From Escherichia coli (GTDB taxonomy: Bacteria > Pseudomonadota > Gammaproteobacteria > Enterobacterales > Enterobacteriaceae), in NCBI RefSeq assembly GCF_036507355.1, contig NZ_AP027877.1: DNA of 64,000 nucleotides; one strand, 5' to 3'. Shown here piece by piece: positions 889 through 45,595 of the stretch. The stretch's first letter is position 1. Each line of letters begins with the position of its first letter. A program made the position numbers and the translations under genes. Below the pieces are notes generated by a model, which made no database searches, was not told where the DNA came from, and was given only the letters and a program-made list of their open reading frames with translations.

Positions 889-3201
889 ATGCCTCGCTTG
901 TTAACCAAACGCGGCTGCTGGATAACGCTGGCAGCTGCGCCATTTCTCCTTTTTCTTGCAGCGTGGGGAGCAGATAAACTCTGGCCTCTACCGCTGCATG
1001 AAGTCAATCCCGCACGAGTGGTCGTGGCGCAGGATGGTACGCCGCTCTGGCGCTTCGCCGATGCTGACGGCATCTGGCGTTATCCGGTAACAATCGAAGA
1101 TGTTTCTCCACGTTACCTTGAAGCGCTGATCAATTATGAAGATCGCTGGTTCTGGAAGCATCCGGGGGTGAATCCATTCTCGGTGGCGCGCGCAGCATGG
1201 CAAGATCTCACTTCGGGACGGGTTATTTCCGGTGGCAGCACGCTCACTATGCAGGTTGCTCGTCTGCTTGATCCTCACCCCAAAACATTTGGCGGCAAAA
1301 TTCGCCAGCTCTGGCGCGCGTTGCAACTGGAATGGCATCTGTCTAAGCGTGAAATTCTGACCTTGTATCTTAACCGCGCTCCGTTTGGCGGTACGTTGCA
1401 GGGGATCGGTGCGGCAAGTTGGGCTTATCTCGGAAAGTCGCCTGCGAATTTAAGCTATTCCGAGGCGGCAATGCTGGCGGTTTTGCCGCAAGCGCCCAGC
1501 CGTCTTCGCCCGGATCGTTGGCCGGAGCGTGCCGAAGCCGCGCGTAATAAAGTGCTCGAACGGATGGCCGTGCAAGGTGTGTGGTCCCGTGAGCAGGTAA
1601 AAGAGTCAAGGGAAGAACCCATCTGGCTGGCACCCCGACAAATGCCGCAACTGGCACCGCTGTTTTCGCGCATGATGCTCGGTAAAAGCAAAAGCGACAA
1701 AATCGTTACTACGCTGGATGCCGGTCTTCAACGACGTCTGGAAGAACTGGCGCAAAACTGGAAAGGACGTTTACCACCGCGCAGCTCACTGGCGATGATC
1801 GTGGTTGATCATACCGATATGCGTGTTCGCGGCTGGGTGGGATCGGTAGATCTCAACGATGATTCACGCTTTGGTCATGTTGATATGGTCAATGCGATCC
1901 GATCGCCAGGGTCGGTTCTCAAACCGTTTGTTTACGGTCTGGCGCTGGATGAAGGCTTGATCCATCCGGCATCGCTGTTGCAAGACGTCCCCCGGCGCAC
2001 CGGTGATTATCGACCAGGTAACTTTGATAGCGGTTTTCATGGCCCGATCAGCATGAGCGAGGCGCTGGTGCGCTCGCTGAATTTACCTGCTGTGCAGGTG
2101 CTGGAAGCCTATGGACCGAAACGGTTTGCGGCAAAATTACGCAATGTTGGATTGCCGTTGTATCTGCCCAACGGCGCTGCGCCCAATCTTTCGCTCATTC
2201 TCGGCGGTGCTGGTGCAAAACTGGAAGATATGGCGGCAGCGTATACCGCGTTTGCTCGCCACGGCAAGGCAGGCAAATTGCGCTTACAGCCTGACGATCC
2301 GCTGCTTGAACGGCCTTTAATGTCGTCGGGGGCTGCGTGGATCATTCGCCGGATTATGGCTGATGAAGCGCAACCCTTGCCGGATGGTGCCTTGCCGCGC
2401 GTCGCTCCACTGGCATGGAAAACGGGCACCAGCTATGGCTATCGTGACGCTTGGGCGATTGGGGTTAACGCTCGTTATGTCATTGGGATCTGGACTGGCA
2501 GACCGGACGGCACGCCCGTTGTTGGTCAGTTTGGTTTTGCCAGCGCCGTACCATTGTTGAATCAGGTCAATAATATCTTACTGTCGCGCAGTGCTAATCT
2601 GCCGGAAGACCCGCGCCCGAACTCAGTCACTCGTGGCGTTATCTGCTGGCCGGGCGGACAGTCTTTGCCGGAAGGTGACGGTAACTGTCGCCGCCGCCTG
2701 GCAACCTGGCTGCTGGACGGGAGTCAGCCGCCAACTCTATTACTGCCGGAGCAGGAAGGCATTAATGGCATTCGTTTCCCCATCTGGCTGGATGAAAATG
2801 GCAAACGTGTTGCCGCTGATTGCCCGCAAGCGCGACAAGAAATGATAAATGTCTGGCCGCTACCGCTGGAACCCTGGTTGCCCGCATCAGAACGTCGCGC
2901 TGTGCGCTTACCACCGGCCTCGACAATTTGCCCGCCATACGGTCACGATGCCCAGCTCCCGCTGCAGCTGACAGGCGTTCGCGATGGCGAGATTATTAAA
3001 CGTTTACCGGGCGCAGCGGAAGCGACTTTGCCGTTGCAATCAAGTGGAGGGGCAGGTGAACGCTGGTGGTTTCTGAATGGCGAACCGTTAACTGAACGCG
3101 GGCGCAACGTGACCCTGCATTTGACGGATAAAGGTGATTATCAATTGCTGGTGATGGATGACGTAGGGCAAATCGCGACAGTGAAATTTGTCATGCAATA
3201 G
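889..3201 (+). CDS. pbpC: penicillin-binding protein 1C (peptidoglycan glycosyltransferase/transpeptidase)
   Basis: 770 aa ORF; N-terminal TM segment, transglycosylase-like N-domain, PBP transpeptidase motifs; synteny with yfhM and ndk. Confidence 0.9.
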   Translation: MPRLLTKRGCWITLAAAPFLLFLAAWGADKLWPLPLHEVNPARVVVAQDGTPLWRFADADGIWRYPVTIEDVSPRYLEALINYEDRWFWKHPGVNPFSVARAAWQDLTSGRVISGGSTLTMQVARLLDPHPKTFGGKIRQLWRALQLEWHLSKREILTLYLNRAPFGGTLQGIGAASWAYLGKSPANLSYSEAAMLAVLPQAPSRLRPDRWPERAEAARNKVLERMAVQGVWSREQVKESREEPIWLAPRQMPQLAPLFSRMMLGKSKSDKIVTTLDAGLQRRLEELAQNWKGRLPPRSSLAMIVVDHTDMRVRGWVGSVDLNDDSRFGHVDMVNAIRSPGSVLKPFVYGLALDEGLIHPASLLQDVPRRTGDYRPGNFDSGFHGPISMSEALVRSLNLPAVQVLEAYGPKRFAAKLRNVGLPLYLPNGAAPNLSLILGGAGAKLEDMAAAYTAFARHGKAGKLRLQPDDPLLERPLMSSGAAWIIRRIMADEAQPLPDGALPRVAPLAWKTGTSYGYRDAWAIGVNARYVIGIWTGRPDGTPVVGQFGFASAVPLLNQVNNILLSRSANLPEDPRPNSVTRGVICWPGGQSLPEGDGNCRRRLATWLLDGSQPPTLLLPEQEGINGIRFPIWLDENGKRVAADCPQARQEMINVWPLPLEPWLPASERRAVRLPPASTICPPYGHDAQLPLQLTGVRDGEIIKRLPGAAEATLPLQSSGGAGERWWFLNGEPLTERGRNVTLHLTDKGDYQLLVMDDVGQIATVKFVMQ

Positions 3202-3349
3202 TCTGTTTTGTCCCTGATTGTTGCTTAAACTAGGTTTATTTTAAAAAAATGTTACCTTCATCAATAGTCAACGGCTCTGTTGCTCATTATAATCCGCGCC
3301 ATCTCGTACGCTGGTACAGACAACAACAGAACAATTTACAGAGGTAAAA

Positions 3350-3781
3350 ATGGCTATTGAACGTACTTTTTCCATTATCAAACCGAACGCGGTAGCAAAA
3401 AACGTCATTGGTAATATCTTTGCGCGCTTTGAAGCTGCAGGGTTCAAAATTGTCGGCACCAAAATGCTGCACCTGACCGTTGAACAGGCTCGTGGCTTTT
3501 ATGCTGAACACGATGGAAAACCGTTCTTTGATGGTCTGGTTGAATTCATGACCTCTGGCCCGATCGTGGTTTCCGTGCTGGAAGGTGAAAACGCCGTTCA
3601 GCGTCACCGCGATCTGCTGGGCGCGACCAATCCGGCAAACGCACTGGCCGGTACTCTGCGCGCTGATTACGCTGATAGCCTGACCGAAAATGGTACCCAC
3701 GGTTCTGACTCCGTCGAATCTGCCGCTCGCGAAATCGCTTATTTCTTCGGCGAAGGCGAAGTGTGCCCGCGCACCCGTTAA
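3350..3781 (+). CDS. ndk: nucleoside diphosphate kinase
   Basis: 143 aa [18 protein letters not shown]... with NGTHGSDS active-site His region; RBS GAGG upstream. Confidence 0.95.
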
Positions 3782-22292: not shown

Positions 22293-22316
22293 TTTGACCC
22301 TGCACTATGAATGAAC

Positions 22317-22347
22317 AAAACCCTCTGTTACTACAGAGGGTTTTTTA
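22317..22347. terminator. bidirectional Rho-independent terminator between convergent guaA and yfgI
   Basis: ACAAAA-CCCTCTG-TTACTA-CAGAGGG-TTTTTTAT: perfect stem flanked by A-run and T-run. Confidence 0.75.
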
Positions 22348-22384
22348 TCTTCAAGAATCATAGGCTTGAAGTTAGTAACATCGA

Positions 22385-22924
22385 TTAATTAAACCAGCTG
22401 TCCGATTTGTTCTCTTCTGCTTTGCCCACGCTTTTCATCAGATCGCGACCGCCTTCAGTCATATTTCTGTTGGCGTCAGCTTCAGATTGCACCACATCGG
22501 TTTGCGCAGCTTTGTGCTTCAGTTCCTGATCGATAAATTCGTTTTCGCGCTTAACGCGGGCTTCTTCTTTCGCCAGCGCCAGTTTTTGTTTCTGAATCTC
22601 TAAGCTGCGTAGCTCATCTTCATAACTTTGATCGCGTTTTTTGTCCGCAGTGGCTTCGGCGTCCAGTTTATCCTGACGAGCTTTCTTATTTGCCGCTGCC
22701 GTTGCCGCTCTTTTGTTAGCGGCGGCCTGGGCATTTGCGCGACGTTGCTTCTCTTGCTGGATTTCCCTGTTGCGCTCCGCGACCCATTCGTCATGCTGCC
22801 TTTGCTCTTCATTTTTACCTTGCTGTTCCGCTTCTGCGACAGCAGAGAGTTGATCCTGCAATGATGAGGCGATAGCCGGATAGCTTAAGGAGGCTAAGAT
22901 GGCGCAAAGAAAAACTTTCTTCAT
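22385..22924 (-). CDS. yfgI: secreted coiled-coil, charged protein YfgI
   Basis: 179 aa; signal peptide, then K/E/A/Q-rich low-complexity region. Confidence 0.8.
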   Translation of the reverse strand: MKKVFLCAILASLSYPAIASSLQDQLSAVAEAEQQGKNEEQRQHDEWVAERNREIQQEKQRRANAQAAANKRAATAAANKKARQDKLDAEATADKKRDQSYEDELRSLEIQKQKLALAKEEARVKRENEFIDQELKHKAAQTDVVQSEADANRNMTEGGRDLMKSVGKAEENKSDSWFN

Positions 22925-22939
22925 AACTCCTCCTGATTA

Positions 22940-23458
22940 TTAGCTCTTTTCAGGACATTTGGTATTTGGCTGAATACGCGTTTCGTTATACGTCGTGGTA
23001 ATAACAACGGCTAAACCTGTCGTAAACTGGCACTCTTTACCCACCTGGGTAGAGGTATACACTTTGGTGCCTTCCTTATACGTTAAAGAAACACCTTCCA
23101 CTAAGGTTTTATCATTCACCATAGAACCCGCTGCCGCGCCTACAGCTCCGCCGCCAACTGCACCTGCCGTCGTTCCGGAATTGCTGCCAGACCCGACGTT
23201 GTGGCCGATAACACCGCCAGCGACTGCGCCAATAAGCGCGCCGAAGGCTTGTGCGTTCCGTTTATTTTGGGAGTTGTCTACGGCAACTTTTGCGGGAAGA
23301 ATGGAAATAATATTAACGGTTTTAGTTTCTTGTTTGGTATTCAGTTGATCAGTTTGATAAACATCGGCGGCATGATCGTCAGCATTTGACTGGCATCCTG
23401 CCAGAGTGAATGACGCTAACATTACTACAGGCAGAAGATATTTTTTAAATTTCATCAC
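22940..23458 (-). CDS. yfgH: outer-membrane lipoprotein YfgH (glycine-zipper)
   Basis: 172 aa; lipobox LAGC; Gly-zipper GALIGAVAGGVIGHNVGSG. Confidence 0.85.
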   Translation of the reverse strand: MMKFKKYLLPVVMLASFTLAGCQSNADDHAADVYQTDQLNTKQETKTVNIISILPAKVAVDNSQNKRNAQAFGALIGAVAGGVIGHNVGSGSNSGTTAGAVGGGAVGAAAGSMVNDKTLVEGVSLTYKEGTKVYTSTQVGKECQFTTGLAVVITTTYNETRIQPNTKCPEKS

Positions 23459-23484
23459 TATTCCTTGTTGGTAATGACTCCAAC

Positions 23485-23988
23485 TTATTGATAGTGTTTT
23501 ATGTTCAGATAATGCCCGATGACTTTGTCATGCAGCTCCACCGATTTTGAGAACGACAGCGACTTCCGTCCCAGCCGTGCCAGGTGCTGCCTCAGATTCA
23601 GGTTATGCCGCTCAATTCGCTGCGTATATCGCTTGCTGATTACGTGCAGCTTTCCCTTCAGGCGGGATTCATACAGCGGCCAGCCATCCGTCATCCATAT
23701 CACCACGTCAAAGGGTGACAGCAGGCTCATAAGACGCCCCAGCGTCGCCATCGTGCGTTCACCGAATACGTGCGCAACAACCGTCTTCCGGAGCCTGTCA
23801 TACGCGTAAAACAGCCAGCGCTGGCGCGATTTAGCCCCGACATAGCCCCACTGTTCGTCCATTTCCGCGCAGACGATGACGTCACTGCCCGGCTGTATGC
23901 GCGAGGTTACCGACTGCGGCCTGAGTTTTTTAAGTGACGTAAAATCGTGTTGAGGCCAACGCCCATAATGCGGGCTGTTGCCCGGCAT
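23485..23988 (-). CDS. insB: IS1 InsB (transposase C-terminal part; fused to InsA by -1 frameshift)
   Basis: 167 aa, [16 protein letters not shown]...; overlaps insA around the A6C slippery site. Confidence 0.9.
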
Positions 23989-24182
23989 CCAACGCCATTC
24001 ATGGCCATATCAATGATTTTCTGGTGCGTACCGGGTTGAGAAGCGGTGTAAGTGAACTGCAGTTGCCATGTTTTACGGCAGTGAGAGCAGAGATAGCGCT
24101 GATGTCCGGCGGTGCTTTTGCCGTTACGCACCACCCCGTCAGTAGCTGAACAGGAGGGACAGCTGATAGAAACAGAAGCCAC
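23907..24182 (-). CDS. insA: IS1 InsA (transposition repressor / transposase N-terminal part)
   Basis: 91 aa, [40 protein letters not shown]... Confidence 0.9.
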
Positions 24183-24545
24183 TGGAGCACCTCAAAAACA
24201 CCATCATACACTAAATCAGTAAGTTGGCAGCATCACCTTCCTTGTTATACACATTACGAAAAATAAGACATTTAAGATCATCAAAAGAGGAAAGTAAATG
24301 TATTGCGTATAAAGGGATAGATTAAATTTATTAAAATTCACGCAGGGAATAATTTATAAAAATATATCATTACAACATATATATTAATTTTATGTTTATT
24401 TCGCAGCCAAACAGGATAAACATCAGTCAGGACAAAGACGTAAAATTTAAGATGAAAGAATATCTGCCGCTTTGATAATCCCAAAGAGCAAAAGCATCCG
24501 ACAGCGAAGTGCCGTTATGTTCTGTGAAAGTGGAGAAGGTAACCG

Positions 24546-24737
24546 CTAACGTTGTACCGGTGATTCGACGGAGAGTGTGGATTGCTGAGCTTCTTTTTTG
24601 CTCTGATGGTGCTGCCAGGCACCGACGGACGAGTAGATAAAACGGCCAAAGAAGAAGATAAAGCTGATGAGCAGTACGATACGGGTCATGCGACTGTTAA
24701 ATCGGTGTCGTTTTCGCATACTGGTTGCCTGACTCAC
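24546..24737 (-). CDS. yfgG: small membrane protein YfgG
   Basis: 63 aa with single hydrophobic helix (IVLLISFIFFFGRFIY); position between yfgH and pdeF. Confidence 0.6.
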   Translation of the reverse strand: MSQATSMRKRHRFNSRMTRIVLLISFIFFFGRFIYSSVGAWQHHQSKKEAQQSTLSVESPVQR

Positions 24738-24947
24738 AAAAGGTTCCTTGAAGTATGTCCCACGCTGTGGACGGTACTTACATTAAGGCACAACAGGACA
24801 AAATGGTCAATTCTTCGTTATGTAAAAAAGCGTCAGTGGATACATATTTTAATGTTATGGAAGTTAATTTAATTATTTACAATGATGATGTAATAATGAT
24901 GAATTAACATGATAAACGTAATAATTCATTAATCAGGGTTATTTTGT

Positions 24948-24961
24948 TTGATATATATCAA
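24948..24961 (+). promoter_or_regulatory. FNR binding site (perfect consensus) in pdeF promoter
   Basis: TTGATATATATCAA = TTGAT-N4-ATCAA; candidate -10 TAGAAT at 24983-24988 places the site near -41.5 (class II). Confidence 0.7.
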
Positions 24962-25088
24962 TTGGAACTTTCATATGACACTTAGAATCAATGCTCTCTA
25001 TAGTGATGAATAATCATCATTCGAAGTCAGGTGGGATGCCTGTCTGAATACACCTCCTTCAGGATGTGGGGGATTCTGCTGAGCATCT

Positions 25089-27332
25089 ATGAAACTGAAT
25101 GCAACTTATATAAAAATACGTGATAAATGGTGGGGGCTTCCGCTGTTCCTGCCTTCTTTAATCTTGCCCATTTTCGCCCACATTAATACTTTCGCGCATA
25201 TTTCTTCCGGTGAGGTTTTTCTCTTTTATCTGCCTTTGGCACTGATGATCAGCATGATGATGTTTTTCAGCTGGGCGGCATTGCCAGGGATCGCCTTAGG
25301 GATTTTTGTCCGCAAATATGCAGAGCTTGGTTTTTACGAAACGCTCTCATTAACGGCTAATTTTATTATCATTATCATTCTCTGTTGGGGCGGTTACAGG
25401 GTCTTTACTCCCCGGCGTAACAACGTTTCACATGGTGATACCCGTTTAATTTCCCAGCGTATATTCTGGCAGATTGTGTTTCCTGCAACGCTGTTTCTGA
25501 TACTTTTCCAGTTTGCTGCGTTTGTAGGATTACTGGCGAGCAGAGAAAATCTGGTCGGCGTCATGCCTTTTAACCTCGGGACCTTAATCAATTATCAGGC
25601 CTTACTGGTGGGCAATCTGATTGGTGTCCCGCTGTGCTACTTCATCATTCGGGTAGTTCGAAATCCGTTTTATTTACGTAGTTATTATTCGCAATTAAAA
25701 CAGCAGGTTGATGTCAAAGTCACCAAAAAAGAGTTCGCACTCTGGCTACTGGCATTAGGTGCTTTACTGTTGCTGTTATGCATGCCGTTAAATGAAAAAA
25801 GCACAATTTTTAGCACCAATTATACCTTGTCATTATTGCTGCCCCTGATGATGTGGGGAGCGATGCGCTATGGTTATAAGCTGATTTCACTGCTCTGGGC
25901 GGTCATGTTGATGATCAGCATCCACAGCTATCAAAATTACATTCCCATTTATCCCGGCTATACCACGCAGCTGACCATAACCTCCTCCAGTTATCTGGTA
26001 TTCTCTTTTATTGTCAATTATATGGCTGTACTGGCAACCCGTCAGAGAACGGTAGTCAGACGCATTCAGCGGCTTGCGTATGTGGACCCGGTGGTTCATC
26101 TGCCAAATGTTCGCGCCCTGAATCGCGCGTTGCGTGATGCCCCCTGGTCTGCGCTTTGTTATTTACGCATCCCTGGCATGGAAATGCTGGTTAAAAACTA
26201 TGGCATCATGCTGCGGATTCAATACAAGCAAAAACTTTCTCACTGGCTGTCACCATTGCTGGAACCGGGTGAAGATGTTTATCAGCTTTCGGGTAACGAT
26301 CTCGCGCTGCGACTGAATACAGAATCGCACCAGGAGCGCATTACCGCACTGGATAGCCATCTCAAGCAATTTCGTTTCTTTTGGGATGGAATGCCGATGC
26401 AACCGCAGATTGGCGTCAGCTACTGCTATGTACGCTCGCCAGTGAATCATATCTACCTGCTGCTGGGAGAGCTAAATACGGTCGCCGAACTTTCCATCGT
26501 GACCAACGCCCCGGAAAATATGCAGCGTCGCGGGGCAATGTATTTGCAACGCGAATTGAAAGATAAAGTCGCGATGATGAATCGACTACAGCAGGCGCTG
26601 GAACACAACCATTTTTTCCTGATGGCCCAGCCGATTACCGGTATGCGTGGTGATGTTTACCATGAAATTCTTCTGCGCATGAAAGGTGAGAATGATGAAC
26701 TGATCAGCCCCGATAGCTTCTTGCCGGTCGCGCACGAATTTGGTTTATCGTCGAGTATCGACATGTGGGTCATTGAGCATACGCTGCAATTTATGGCTGA
26801 AAACAGAGCGAAGATGCCCGCTCACCGTTTTGCTATTAATCTGTCTCCAACCTCGGTATGTCAGGCTCGTTTTCCTGTTGAAGTCAGTCAGTTGCTGGCT
26901 AAATATCAGATTGAAGCGTGGCAACTTATTTTTGAAGTCACCGAAAGTAATGCTCTGACCAATGTTAAGCAGGCGCAAATCACCTTGCAGCATCTTCAGG
27001 AATTAGGCTGCCAGATTGCGATTGATGATTTCGGCACCGGCTACGCCAGCTATGCGCGGCTTAAAAATGTGAATGCCGATCTGCTTAAAATTGACGGCAG
27101 TTTTATCCGCAATATTGTGTCAAATAGTCTGGATTATCAGATAGTGGCATCGATTTGCCACCTGGCGCGAATGAAGAAAATGCGGGTAGTGGCAGAGTAC
27201 GTTGAAAACGAAGAGATCCGCGAGGCAGTGCTCTCTTTGGGGATCGATTATATGCAGGGTTATCTTATTGGTAAGCCGCAACCGTTAATTGATACGCTGA
27301 ATGAAATCGAACCCATTCGCGAAAGTGCCTGA
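25089..27332 (+). CDS. pdeF: c-di-GMP phosphodiesterase PdeF (MASE1 membrane domain, degenerate GGDEF, EAL)
   Basis: 747 aa; multi-TM N-terminus; EAL-domain motifs in C-terminal third. Confidence 0.85.
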   Translation: MKLNATYIKIRDKWWGLPLFLPSLILPIFAHINTFAHISSGEVFLFYLPLALMISMMMFFSWAALPGIALGIFVRKYAELGFYETLSLTANFIIIIILCWGGYRVFTPRRNNVSHGDTRLISQRIFWQIVFPATLFLILFQFAAFVGLLASRENLVGVMPFNLGTLINYQALLVGNLIGVPLCYFIIRVVRNPFYLRSYYSQLKQQVDVKVTKKEFALWLLALGALLLLLCMPLNEKSTIFSTNYTLSLLLPLMMWGAMRYGYKLISLLWAVMLMISIHSYQNYIPIYPGYTTQLTITSSSYLVFSFIVNYMAVLATRQRTVVRRIQRLAYVDPVVHLPNVRALNRALRDAPWSALCYLRIPGMEMLVKNYGIMLRIQYKQKLSHWLSPLLEPGEDVYQLSGNDLALRLNTESHQERITALDSHLKQFRFFWDGMPMQPQIGVSYCYVRSPVNHIYLLLGELNTVAELSIVTNAPENMQRRGAMYLQRELKDKVAMMNRLQQALEHNHFFLMAQPITGMRGDVYHEILLRMKGENDELISPDSFLPVAHEFGLSSSIDMWVIEHTLQFMAENRAKMPAHRFAINLSPTSVCQARFPVEVSQLLAKYQIEAWQLIFEVTESNALTNVKQAQITLQHLQELGCQIAIDDFGTGYASYARLKNVNADLLKIDGSFIRNIVSNSLDYQIVASICHLARMKKMRVVAEYVENEEIREAVLSLGIDYMQGYLIGKPQPLIDTLNEIEPIRESA

Positions 27333-43879: not shown

Positions 43880-45595
43880 TTACTTCAGCGGCGAACGGTT
43901 ACGATCAATGCCGTAGCGTTCGATCTCTTTATACGGCACGGTTTTTGACTGGCGCTTGCGCACATCAACCAGCGTCACACGGTCGGTACAGGAGTAGCAG
44001 GGATCAAGGCTACCGATAATCAGCGGTGCGTCAGAAACGGTATTGCCGCGTAGCATGTAACGCAGCACCGGCCAGTTGGCGTAGGTGGCGGCACGACAGC
44101 GCCAGCGGAACAATTTTTGGTTATCACCGAGCATGCTCCAGTGCACGTCTTCACCGCGTGGCGCTTCAACAAAGCCGAGCGCGAATGCGTGAGGTTTATA
44201 GCTAAAGCCTTCGGTCAGCAGTGGGGTGTCCGGCATGTTGTCGAGGGCAAATTCCAGCATTGCCAGCGAATCAAACGTCTCTTTGACACGGACCATCACG
44301 CGGGAGAAGACATCGCCGCCGGTAAAGGTAAACAGTGTTTTGGGAATATTGCCGTAGTCGGCGTAGGGGTGATCAAAGCGCAAATCACGGGCAAAACCAC
44401 TGCCGCGGATCAGCGGCCCTACAGGGCTATATTCACGGGCGATTTGTCGGTCGAGAATGCCAATGCCCTGAGTGCGTTGTTCCATATTCGGCGTAGCAAG
44501 CAGCATCTCTACCAGCTCCGACACGTCGGCGCGCATCTCGCGCACCAGTTTCAGCGTTTGCAGACGTTGCTCTTTGAGAATATCGCGGCGAACACCACCA
44601 ATCAGATTCAGACCGTAGGTTTTACGCGACCCGGTCAGCAATTCCGCCATCGTCATCGACTTTTCCCGCACGCGGAAAAATTGCATAAAGCCGGTATCAA
44701 AACCAACAAAATGGCAGGAGAGGCCAAGGTTGAGCAAATGACTGTGTAGCCGTTCGACTTCCAGCAGAATCGAGCGAATGGTATGCGCTCGTTGCGGCAC
44801 CTCAATCCCCAGTGCATTTTCAACCGAGTTGGTATAGGCCACACTGTGGGCAAAACCGCAAATCCCACACACGCGGTCCGATAAGAAGGTCACTTCGTTG
44901 TAGCCCATCCGCGTTTCTGCCAGTTTCTCCATGCCGCGATGGACATAAAACAGGCGGTAATCAGCATCGACAATTTGCTCGCCATCCACAAACAAGCGGA
45001 AGTGACCCGGTTCATCGGAGGTGATATGCAGCGGGCCGACAGGGATCACCTGCGCATCGCTGTTGCCCTCATTGATAAACGGATACGTTTCGGAATCAGT
45101 CGTCGGTTCAGGGCGCAGTCGATAATCCATCGCGTCTTTGCGCAGCGGATGCATATCTTCCGGCCAGTCATCGGGCAACACCAGGCGACGCTGATCCGGC
45201 AGGCCAACCGGAATCAGCCCGTACATATCGCGAATTTCTCGCTCGCCCCAGACCGCGGCAGGGACGCGCGGTGTGACTGACGGAAACTCCCGACTGTCGG
45301 CATCGACCAGTGTCTTCACCACGATCCAGCATTTTTCGGCCCCTTCCATAGAAAGGGCATAATAAACGGCGTAATGACCGTTAAGTGTCCGCTCGTCGTT
45401 GCCAAACAGGACCGGAAGCCAGCCATCATGTTGATAATAAAGATAATGTACAACGTCAGGCAGCAGATTGATTTTCACCGTAATGGTGACCTGTTCAGGC
45501 GTTTGTCGCTCTTCATCCAGCACCGCGCCGGGGAACTGCGTTTTCAGGGCGGCGAGAATCGCTTCGCCACGATTTGACGATGAATTAACGTTCAC
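43880..45595 (-). CDS. hyfG: hydrogenase-4 large subunit ([NiFe] catalytic, NuoC/NuoD-like fusion)
   Basis: Ni-binding [10 protein letters not shown] and C-terminal DPCYSCTDR motifs; start uncertain (GTG 45595 with GGAG RBS, or other in-frame starts up to 45640). Confidence 0.85.

Follow-up and report, generated by a model that had tools for sequence, protein, structure and literature searches.

The presence of an IS1 element immediately upstream of yfgH raises the question of what becomes of the expression of this gene, and of its neighbour yfgI, in the Escherichia coli lineage whose DNA was analysed here as one stretch of 64,000 nucleotides (hereafter, the window). Recent work has linked the lipoprotein YfgH to the stability of the outer membrane under stress. 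According to a preprint (10.64898/2025.12.22.696046), unstressed cells contain an estimated ~7 copies of the protein, which is strongly induced by depletion of LpxC, LptD or BamA, and whose loss leads to SDS/EDTA sensitivity. We consider it probable (about 60%), from the arrangement of the locus, that the insertion behaves as a promoter-displacing polar mutation, which would leave yfgH-yfgI with a low and largely uninducible expression, or in other words with a hypomorphic and not a null allele.

Structure and Identity of the IS1 Element

A complete IS1 of 768 bp occupies positions 23470-24237 on the minus strand of the window, as read from the sequence and checked with a script. The element opens with GGTAATGACTCCAACTTATTGAT and closes with ...ATCAGTAAGTTGGCAGCATCACC, and its terminal inverted repeats are imperfect, with 18 matches in the first 23 positions. 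Of these repeats, the right one (IRR, 23470-23492), which starts with GGTAATGACTCCAACTTATTGAT, adjoins the ribosome-binding site of yfgH, and the left one (IRL, 24215-24237) overlaps the -35 part of the IS1 promoter. Two overlapping frames are found on the minus strand: insA (24182 to 23907), which encodes 91 aa from a GTG start and shows the Pfam domains Zn_ribbon_InsA and HTH_Tnp_IS1, that is, a zinc ribbon and a helix-turn-helix, and insB (23988 to 23485), with the DDE domain DDE_Tnp_IS1 (Pfam scores for insA/insB: PF03811, 1.3e-21; PF12759, 4.7e-31; PF03400, 2.3e-78). The A6C programmed -1 frameshift site, AAAAAAC, lies at 23931 to 23925 on the same strand (IS1 position 307), and a -1 shift made there in silico yields an uninterrupted InsAB' of 232 aa. 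The first-pass annotation, which had described a complete 768-bp IS1 with insA/insB, the A6C site and both terminal repeats, is thus borne out by the sequence, the Pfam domains and the in-silico frameshift.

Comparison with the IS1A of MG1655 revealed differences at 2 of the 768 bases, and the element is 100% identical to a copy in strain USDA-ARS-USMARC-51688, where the PGAP annotation gives an IS1A-family transposase. By every feature of membership that could be checked, the element is a member of the IS1 family and of its IS1A isoform. Moreover, the window copy appears to keep intact every sequence requirement for transposition. It is the single IS1 of the 64-kb window, which holds no other insertion sequence either.

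Target Site and Reality of the Insertion

A perfect 9-bp direct repeat, TTCCTTGTT, is found on either side of IS1 at 23461-23469 and 24238-24246, a duplication already reported at these positions and now confirmed by the sequence and by script. At fixed positions, a 9-bp match would arise by chance with a probability of 4^-9, or ~4e-6. The yfgH-side copy (23461-23469) reads AACAAGGAA on the yfgH strand, and the distal copy (24238-24246) adjoins the IRL. Once IS1 and one copy of the repeat were deleted in silico, the remaining sequence aligned to MG1655 without gaps over 1,123 bp at 99.1% identity. MG1655 represents the empty site, with only one TTCCTTGTT and no IS1 at yfgH, in agreement with the earlier remark that no IS1 is known at this site in K-12 MG1655; the comparison with reference E. 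coli that had been proposed as a check has accordingly returned a colinear locus, interrupted just by IS1 and one repeat. Altogether, an intact IS1A-type element has moved by simple transposition into the AT-rich yfgG-yfgH spacer, with the usual 9-bp duplication.

Repeats commonly cause misassembly, and an IS1 misplaced by the assembler has to be considered in this regard. Against such an artefact stand the perfect 9-bp duplication, the exact colinearity with the empty site, and two independent draft assemblies that break at the same junction. Both assemblies carry the rare yfgH allele of the window. One draft contig, from GCA_021425525.1, shares 3,527 bp with the window at 100% identity and breaks off at position 23466, and another, from GCA_047852605.1, breaks off at 23464. 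Both ends fall inside the duplication, as is typical of short-read contigs broken by a repeat, which argues against an artefact, in our view extremely improbable, and for an insertion shared within a lineage. The YfgH allele of the window (Y7, V12) is itself rare, being found in 4 contigs, and the insertion probably marks a lineage.

As for the background of this lineage, apart from the sinH/sinI island (12334-17723) and a small hyfG insertion, the window follows MG1655 colinearly at 98-99% identity, and the closest complete genome shares only 99.3% identity with it over 19.7 kb. A Shigella origin, which would account for a high load of insertion sequences, was examined and rejected: the 50 of 50 checkable K-12 genes fully contained in the window are stop-free and full-length, with the exception that the hyfE match covers residues 1-205 of 216 only, and there is one insertion sequence in 64 kb. 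The intact K-12 genes and the 99.3% identity of the nearest complete genome point to an under-sampled E. coli lineage and not to a decayed Shigella genome.

Some other differences from K-12 were observed along the window. The island between der and xseA (12334-17723), 5.4 kb long and absent from K-12, comprises sinH (an inverse autotransporter, 12818-14998), a sinI-like gene (15054-16019) and a RatA/RatB-like fragment of 460 aa with InvE_AD and BIg21 domains (16191-17573). When a 5.7-kb query spanning the island (window 12200-17900) was compared with other E. coli, only its first 71% found a match, at 99%. The yfgJ homologue that adjoins the island genes (12393-12608) is only 65% identical to K-12 YfgJ. 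Furthermore, hyfG contains an in-frame insertion of ~16 aa relative to K-12 (44392-44433), and the last 11 residues of HyfE (hyfE 3' end, ~47205) do not align to K-12.

Position Relative to yfgH-yfgI

The minus-strand sequence across the junction is ...GAGTCATTACC/AACAAGGAA/TA/GTG ATG AAA TTT. The duplication lies upstream of yfgH, at 2 bp from its annotated GTG start (23458) and 5 bp from an in-frame ATG (23455), so that the distance of 2 bp initially given between the insertion and the start codon holds for the annotated GTG. IS1 itself ends 11 bp from this GTG, and the insB stop codon (23487-23485) lies 26 nt upstream of it. The ribosome-binding site AAGGA (23467 to 23463) falls inside the yfgH-side copy of the duplication, and its presence within AACAAGGAA agrees with the earlier proposal that the duplication holds the yfgH Shine-Dalgarno; its spacing suits the in-frame ATG at 23455 better than the GTG.

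Both genes downstream of the element are intact. The first, yfgH (22940-23458, minus strand), encodes from the GTG a glycine-zipper outer-membrane lipoprotein of 172 aa that differs from the K-12 protein in two amino acids, both in the signal peptide (C7Y, A12V). The second, yfgI (DUF5384; 22385-22924, minus strand), starts 15 bp downstream of yfgH, and its product shows a single amino-acid difference from K-12. Such a lack of decay fits either a recent insertion or an ongoing use of the genes. Co-transcription of yfgI with yfgH is presumed, and yfgHI is handled as one operon in PMC11619404. The order guaA, yfgI-yfgH, IS1, yfgG and pdeF is that of K-12, IS1 apart. Since insA and insB lie on the same strand as yfgH, IS1 is co-oriented with yfgH-yfgI, and the layout is now, in the direction of transcription, native 5' region, IRL, insA, insB, IRR, ribosome-binding site, yfgH and yfgI.

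At the other end of the element (24216-24246, minus strand), the distal copy of the duplication followed by the IRL gives AAGGAA-G-GTGATGCTGCCAACTTACTGA, a second ribosome-binding site placed before a mini-ORF of six codons (MMLPTY*) whose start, GTGATG, resembles that of yfgH. Judging from this arrangement, transcripts from the native promoter could load ribosomes at the mini-ORF.

Transcription Across the Insertion

The native 5' region of yfgH, now displaced, corresponds to the yfgG-yfgH spacer (24247-24545, minus strand, GC 0.31) and holds the only candidate native promoters, which are a few weak sigma-70-like sites on the yfgH strand, among them a predicted TTGGCT-18-TAATAT at 24410..24381. 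A literature search found no paper identifying a promoter or a regulator of yfgH. Any promoter yielding an mRNA with the ribosome-binding site must be upstream of the insertion, and is therefore now at least 777 bp further off. The claim of the first-pass annotation that yfgH-yfgI have been cut off from their native promoter follows from this geometry.

Within IS1, the predicted promoter (PIRL/PIS1, CTGCCA-16-TATGAT) is located at 24230..24203 on the minus strand, and the promoter scan returned as yfgH-facing sigma-70-like sites only PIRL and a weak match inside insA. PIS1 has been described as extremely weak, overlapping the IRL and repressed by InsA (PMC12428005). No outward sigma-70-like promoter was predicted in the 550 bp nearest the IRR, and no intrinsic terminator on the yfgH strand of IS1. 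A search of Rfam with positions 22300-25200 gave no match to a structured RNA or known RNA gene at E <= 1. A hybrid promoter, formed by a -35 box in the IRR and a -10 box in the flank, was ruled out, since with only 11 bp to the GTG transcription would start at or after the start codon: downstream of TTGGAG in the IRR, the hexamers found at 16-18 bp are ATAGTG, TAGTGA or AGTGAT, which match the -10 consensus at no more than 3 of 6 positions. A hairpin between the IRR and the duplication that would sequester the ribosome-binding site found no support, as in the predicted fold of the read-through RNA this site has a mean unpaired probability of 0.8, versus 0.35 in the native leader.

Probable Consequences for the Expression of yfgH-yfgI

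Altogether, these features outline how a polar, promoter-displacing insertion might operate here. IS1 landed between the control region of yfgH and its ribosome-binding site, so that yfgH-yfgI would be expressed only from transcripts crossing all 768 bp of the element. Read-through of this kind is possible, owing to the co-orientation of IS1 with yfgH, both from the IS1 promoter and from the displaced native promoter, and the transcripts would start either at the weak, InsA-repressed former or at the latter. They would probably be attenuated in the largely untranslated insB segment, whereas those that reach the end would be kept translatable by the retained ribosome-binding site, predicted to be open. 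In this line, IS1 exerts a strong, Rho-dependent polarity when inserted in gal and lac, whichever its orientation, and insB is translated in only ~2% of the transcripts. The insB RNA of the window is G-rich and not C-rich (C/G 0.6-0.95), hence not an obvious Rho-loading site, which somewhat weakens the argument for Rho but does not remove it. On the side of transcription entering and crossing the element, work with reporter strains has revealed that host transcription reads into IS1, and that lacZ is expressed as an operon when it follows the insAB' stop codon immediately (PMC12428005), a read-through that was recorded with an IS1 whose frameshift had been fixed and whose insB was fully translated.

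These same observations allow for other outcomes. As YfgH amounts to only ~7 copies in an unstressed cell, read-through from the IS1 promoter might equal or exceed so tiny a native basal level, in which case yfgH-yfgI would be weakly constitutive instead of silenced. The co-orientation of IS1, the lack of a predicted intrinsic terminator on the yfgH strand, a ribosome-binding site that is both kept and accessible in the predicted fold, and the IS1 transcripts that reach the end of insB in the reporter strains (PMC12428005) would all be in favour of such a low-level activation. Nevertheless, we regard it as unlikely, given the extreme weakness of PIS1 and its repression by InsA (PMC12428005), together with the absence of a predicted outward promoter. 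The classically polar behaviour of IS1 also counts against it.

Another outcome would be that the native promoter reads efficiently through the element, with stress induction largely retained and an insertion that is nearly neutral. Host promoters do read into IS1 via the IRL (PMC12428005), the native promoter and IS1 share their orientation, yfgH and yfgI are intact, and the insB RNA is not C-rich. On the other hand, the transcript would be 777 nt longer and would include ~420 nt (23907 to 23485) translated in only ~2% of transcripts, and the polarity of IS1 in operons is long established, for which reasons we consider an unaltered regulation quite improbable. A related and still more doubtful scenario arises because the native promoter points into the IRL of a co-oriented, intact IS1, so that outer-membrane stress could drive the transcription of insA/insAB'. 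A stress-inducible yfgH promoter might then produce both the transposase and the read-through into yfgH-yfgI, making IS1 an envelope-stress-responsive source of transposase and yfgH a partly inducible gene. Polar displacement of the promoter, with a residual and poorly inducible expression, is thus the reading that we favour.

IS1 Near yfgH in Other E. coli

The exact IS1-yfgH junction of the window was found in none of 5,426 complete RefSeq E. coli genomes. In ~45-49 of these genomes, an IS1 lies within ~600 bp of the insertion site, compared to the ~14 genomes expected if IS1 were uniformly spread at ~10.7 chromosomal copies per 5-Mb genome. Within ~43 bp of the site, the figures are 7 genomes versus 0.5 expected under a uniform spread. 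Twenty representative loci were mapped on the K-12 empty site, the positions of their duplications being expressed relative to the yfgH GTG, a scale on which the window duplication is at +3..+11. Upstream insertions in the same orientation are those at -2..+6 (USMARC-51688, with TUM9812 showing the same left junction), +4..+12 (GZEC065), +17..+25 (S171-1) and +32..+40 (SCPM-O-B-9504), followed by others at +58..+65, +148..+155, +196..+203 and +574..+582. In the opposite orientation, upstream insertions map at +20..+28 (ZH177) and at ~+130, +162 and +573. An IS1 inside yfgH, in either orientation, is present in E. coli C, BS74R-D, E70, DFK.1, the TA8571 group, the K_EC180/ETEC group and CB209, and an IS1-adjacent deletion of yfgH-yfgI or part of yfgH occurs in G3/10 and GmM062; in the probiotic G3/10, it is yfgH-yfgI that has been deleted next to IS1. 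Judged by its position, the window insertion is a distinct event in a region that has been hit repeatedly.

Such a record, with more than 20 independent IS1 events in ~1.2 kb among the 5,426 genomes, at least nine of them disrupting yfgH and at least two being deletions, and with the ~45-49 genomes exceeding the uniform expectation of ~14, might suggest that less or no YfgH is advantageous in some niches and that IS1 hits the gene recurrently for this reason. What decides against it is a control matched for AT content, the spacer upstream of yffB (62806-63343, GC 0.34), which is the most AT-rich comparable region of the window. The control queries were built identically, chimeric queries for the opposite orientation being added. 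An IS1 within 600 bp was recovered in 23 genomes at yffB versus 26 upstream of yfgH, the genomes in the same and opposite orientation being 10 + 13 and 22 + 4, respectively, with a similar number of distinct sites. Moreover, the hits inside yfgH are concentrated in the AT-rich 5' third of the gene, and the split in orientation (8 sites versus 4) lacks statistical significance. Since IS1 prefers AT-rich targets (Zerbib et al. 1985, as cited in PMC9330008), this preference suffices for the pattern, and a selected loss of function appears very unlikely. The equal density in the AT-matched control indicates that the apparent hotspot reflects the preference of IS1 for AT-rich, dispensable DNA, and the frequent disruption of yfgH in natural strains indicates that the gene is dispensable under many conditions. 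Two further proposals were accordingly rejected: a special hotspot or selection at yfgH, because the yffB control is hit equally often, and selection for read-through, which an orientation bias would have signalled, because comparable queries gave 8 sites in the same orientation against 4 in the opposite one, a difference without significance.

The survey gave some additional observations. In the spacer upstream of yffB, within which ypfM lies, the IS1 copies of these 23 of 5,426 complete genomes are found at many distinct positions. The strains with an IS1-disrupted yfgH comprise E. coli C and several clinical or animal isolates. In TA8571 (and also in XD35 and W409), two divergent copies of IS1 in opposite orientations, 95% and 91% identical to that of the window, are found one inside yfgH and one 150 bp upstream, bracketing the 5' end of the gene like a composite transposon. 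In several strains, genes of foreign origin lie in the yfgI-guaA spacer (at 1272-3525, 1-298 and 127-324 of the extracted loci L014, L006 and L007, respectively), among them one for a KAP-family NTPase and one for a DUF2514 protein, along with other small genes, which suggests that this spacer is a mobile-element integration site.

Significance and Comparison with Known Systems

The exact site is new among complete genomes, and the insertion is otherwise a standard IS1 polymorphism of known behaviour. In this lineage, YfgH and YfgI are probably expressed in an altered manner, most likely at a reduced level and without induction, and a reduced YfgH would predict sensitivity to SDS/EDTA or vancomycin. 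The junction provides a convenient lineage marker, with a value mainly for annotation and strain genetics. The IS1-disrupted or deleted yfgH of E. coli C, G3/10 and other strains is relevant to studies of YfgH that make use of them, and the recurrent disruption of the gene reflects the ordinary AT preference of IS1 and not new biology.

Compared with the IS1A of E. coli K-12, the element is alike in its 768 bp, of which 766 are the same bases, in its inverted repeats, in insA/insB with the A6C site and in the 9-bp duplication, and differs in location only, K-12 being without IS1 at yfgH. Its closest counterparts in position are the alleles of GZEC065, USMARC-51688/TUM9812, S171-1, SCPM-O-B-9504, ZH177 and G3/10, which all have an IS1 no more than 40 bp upstream of the yfgH start, five of them co-oriented, and with 9-bp duplications where both flanks are intact. 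Nevertheless, their target positions are other than the +3..+11 of the window and none is the same event, and G3/10 has, in contrast to the window, lost yfgH-yfgI as well.

IS1 also lies immediately upstream of the gene in the fusion promoters of bla TEM-1 (Prentki 1986) and of acrEF in Salmonella (Olliver 2005), both as cited in PMC9330008, but such promoters need a -10 box in the flank at the right spacing, which the IS1 of the window, only 11 bp from the start codon, does not offer. The activation of bgl and flhDC by IS1 or IS5 resembles the present case in that the element enters an AT-rich regulatory region. There, silencing is relieved by an element located upstream of the promoter, whereas the IS1 of the window is downstream of any promoter. 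By its position, the element would belong with the polar, promoter-displacing class, as exemplified by the classical insertions of IS1 in the gal and lac leaders, where it likewise sits between the promoter and the first gene and makes expression depend on read-through. The polarity at yfgH would follow by analogy with those insertions, from which the present one differs in that its target-site duplication preserves the ribosome-binding site of the first gene.
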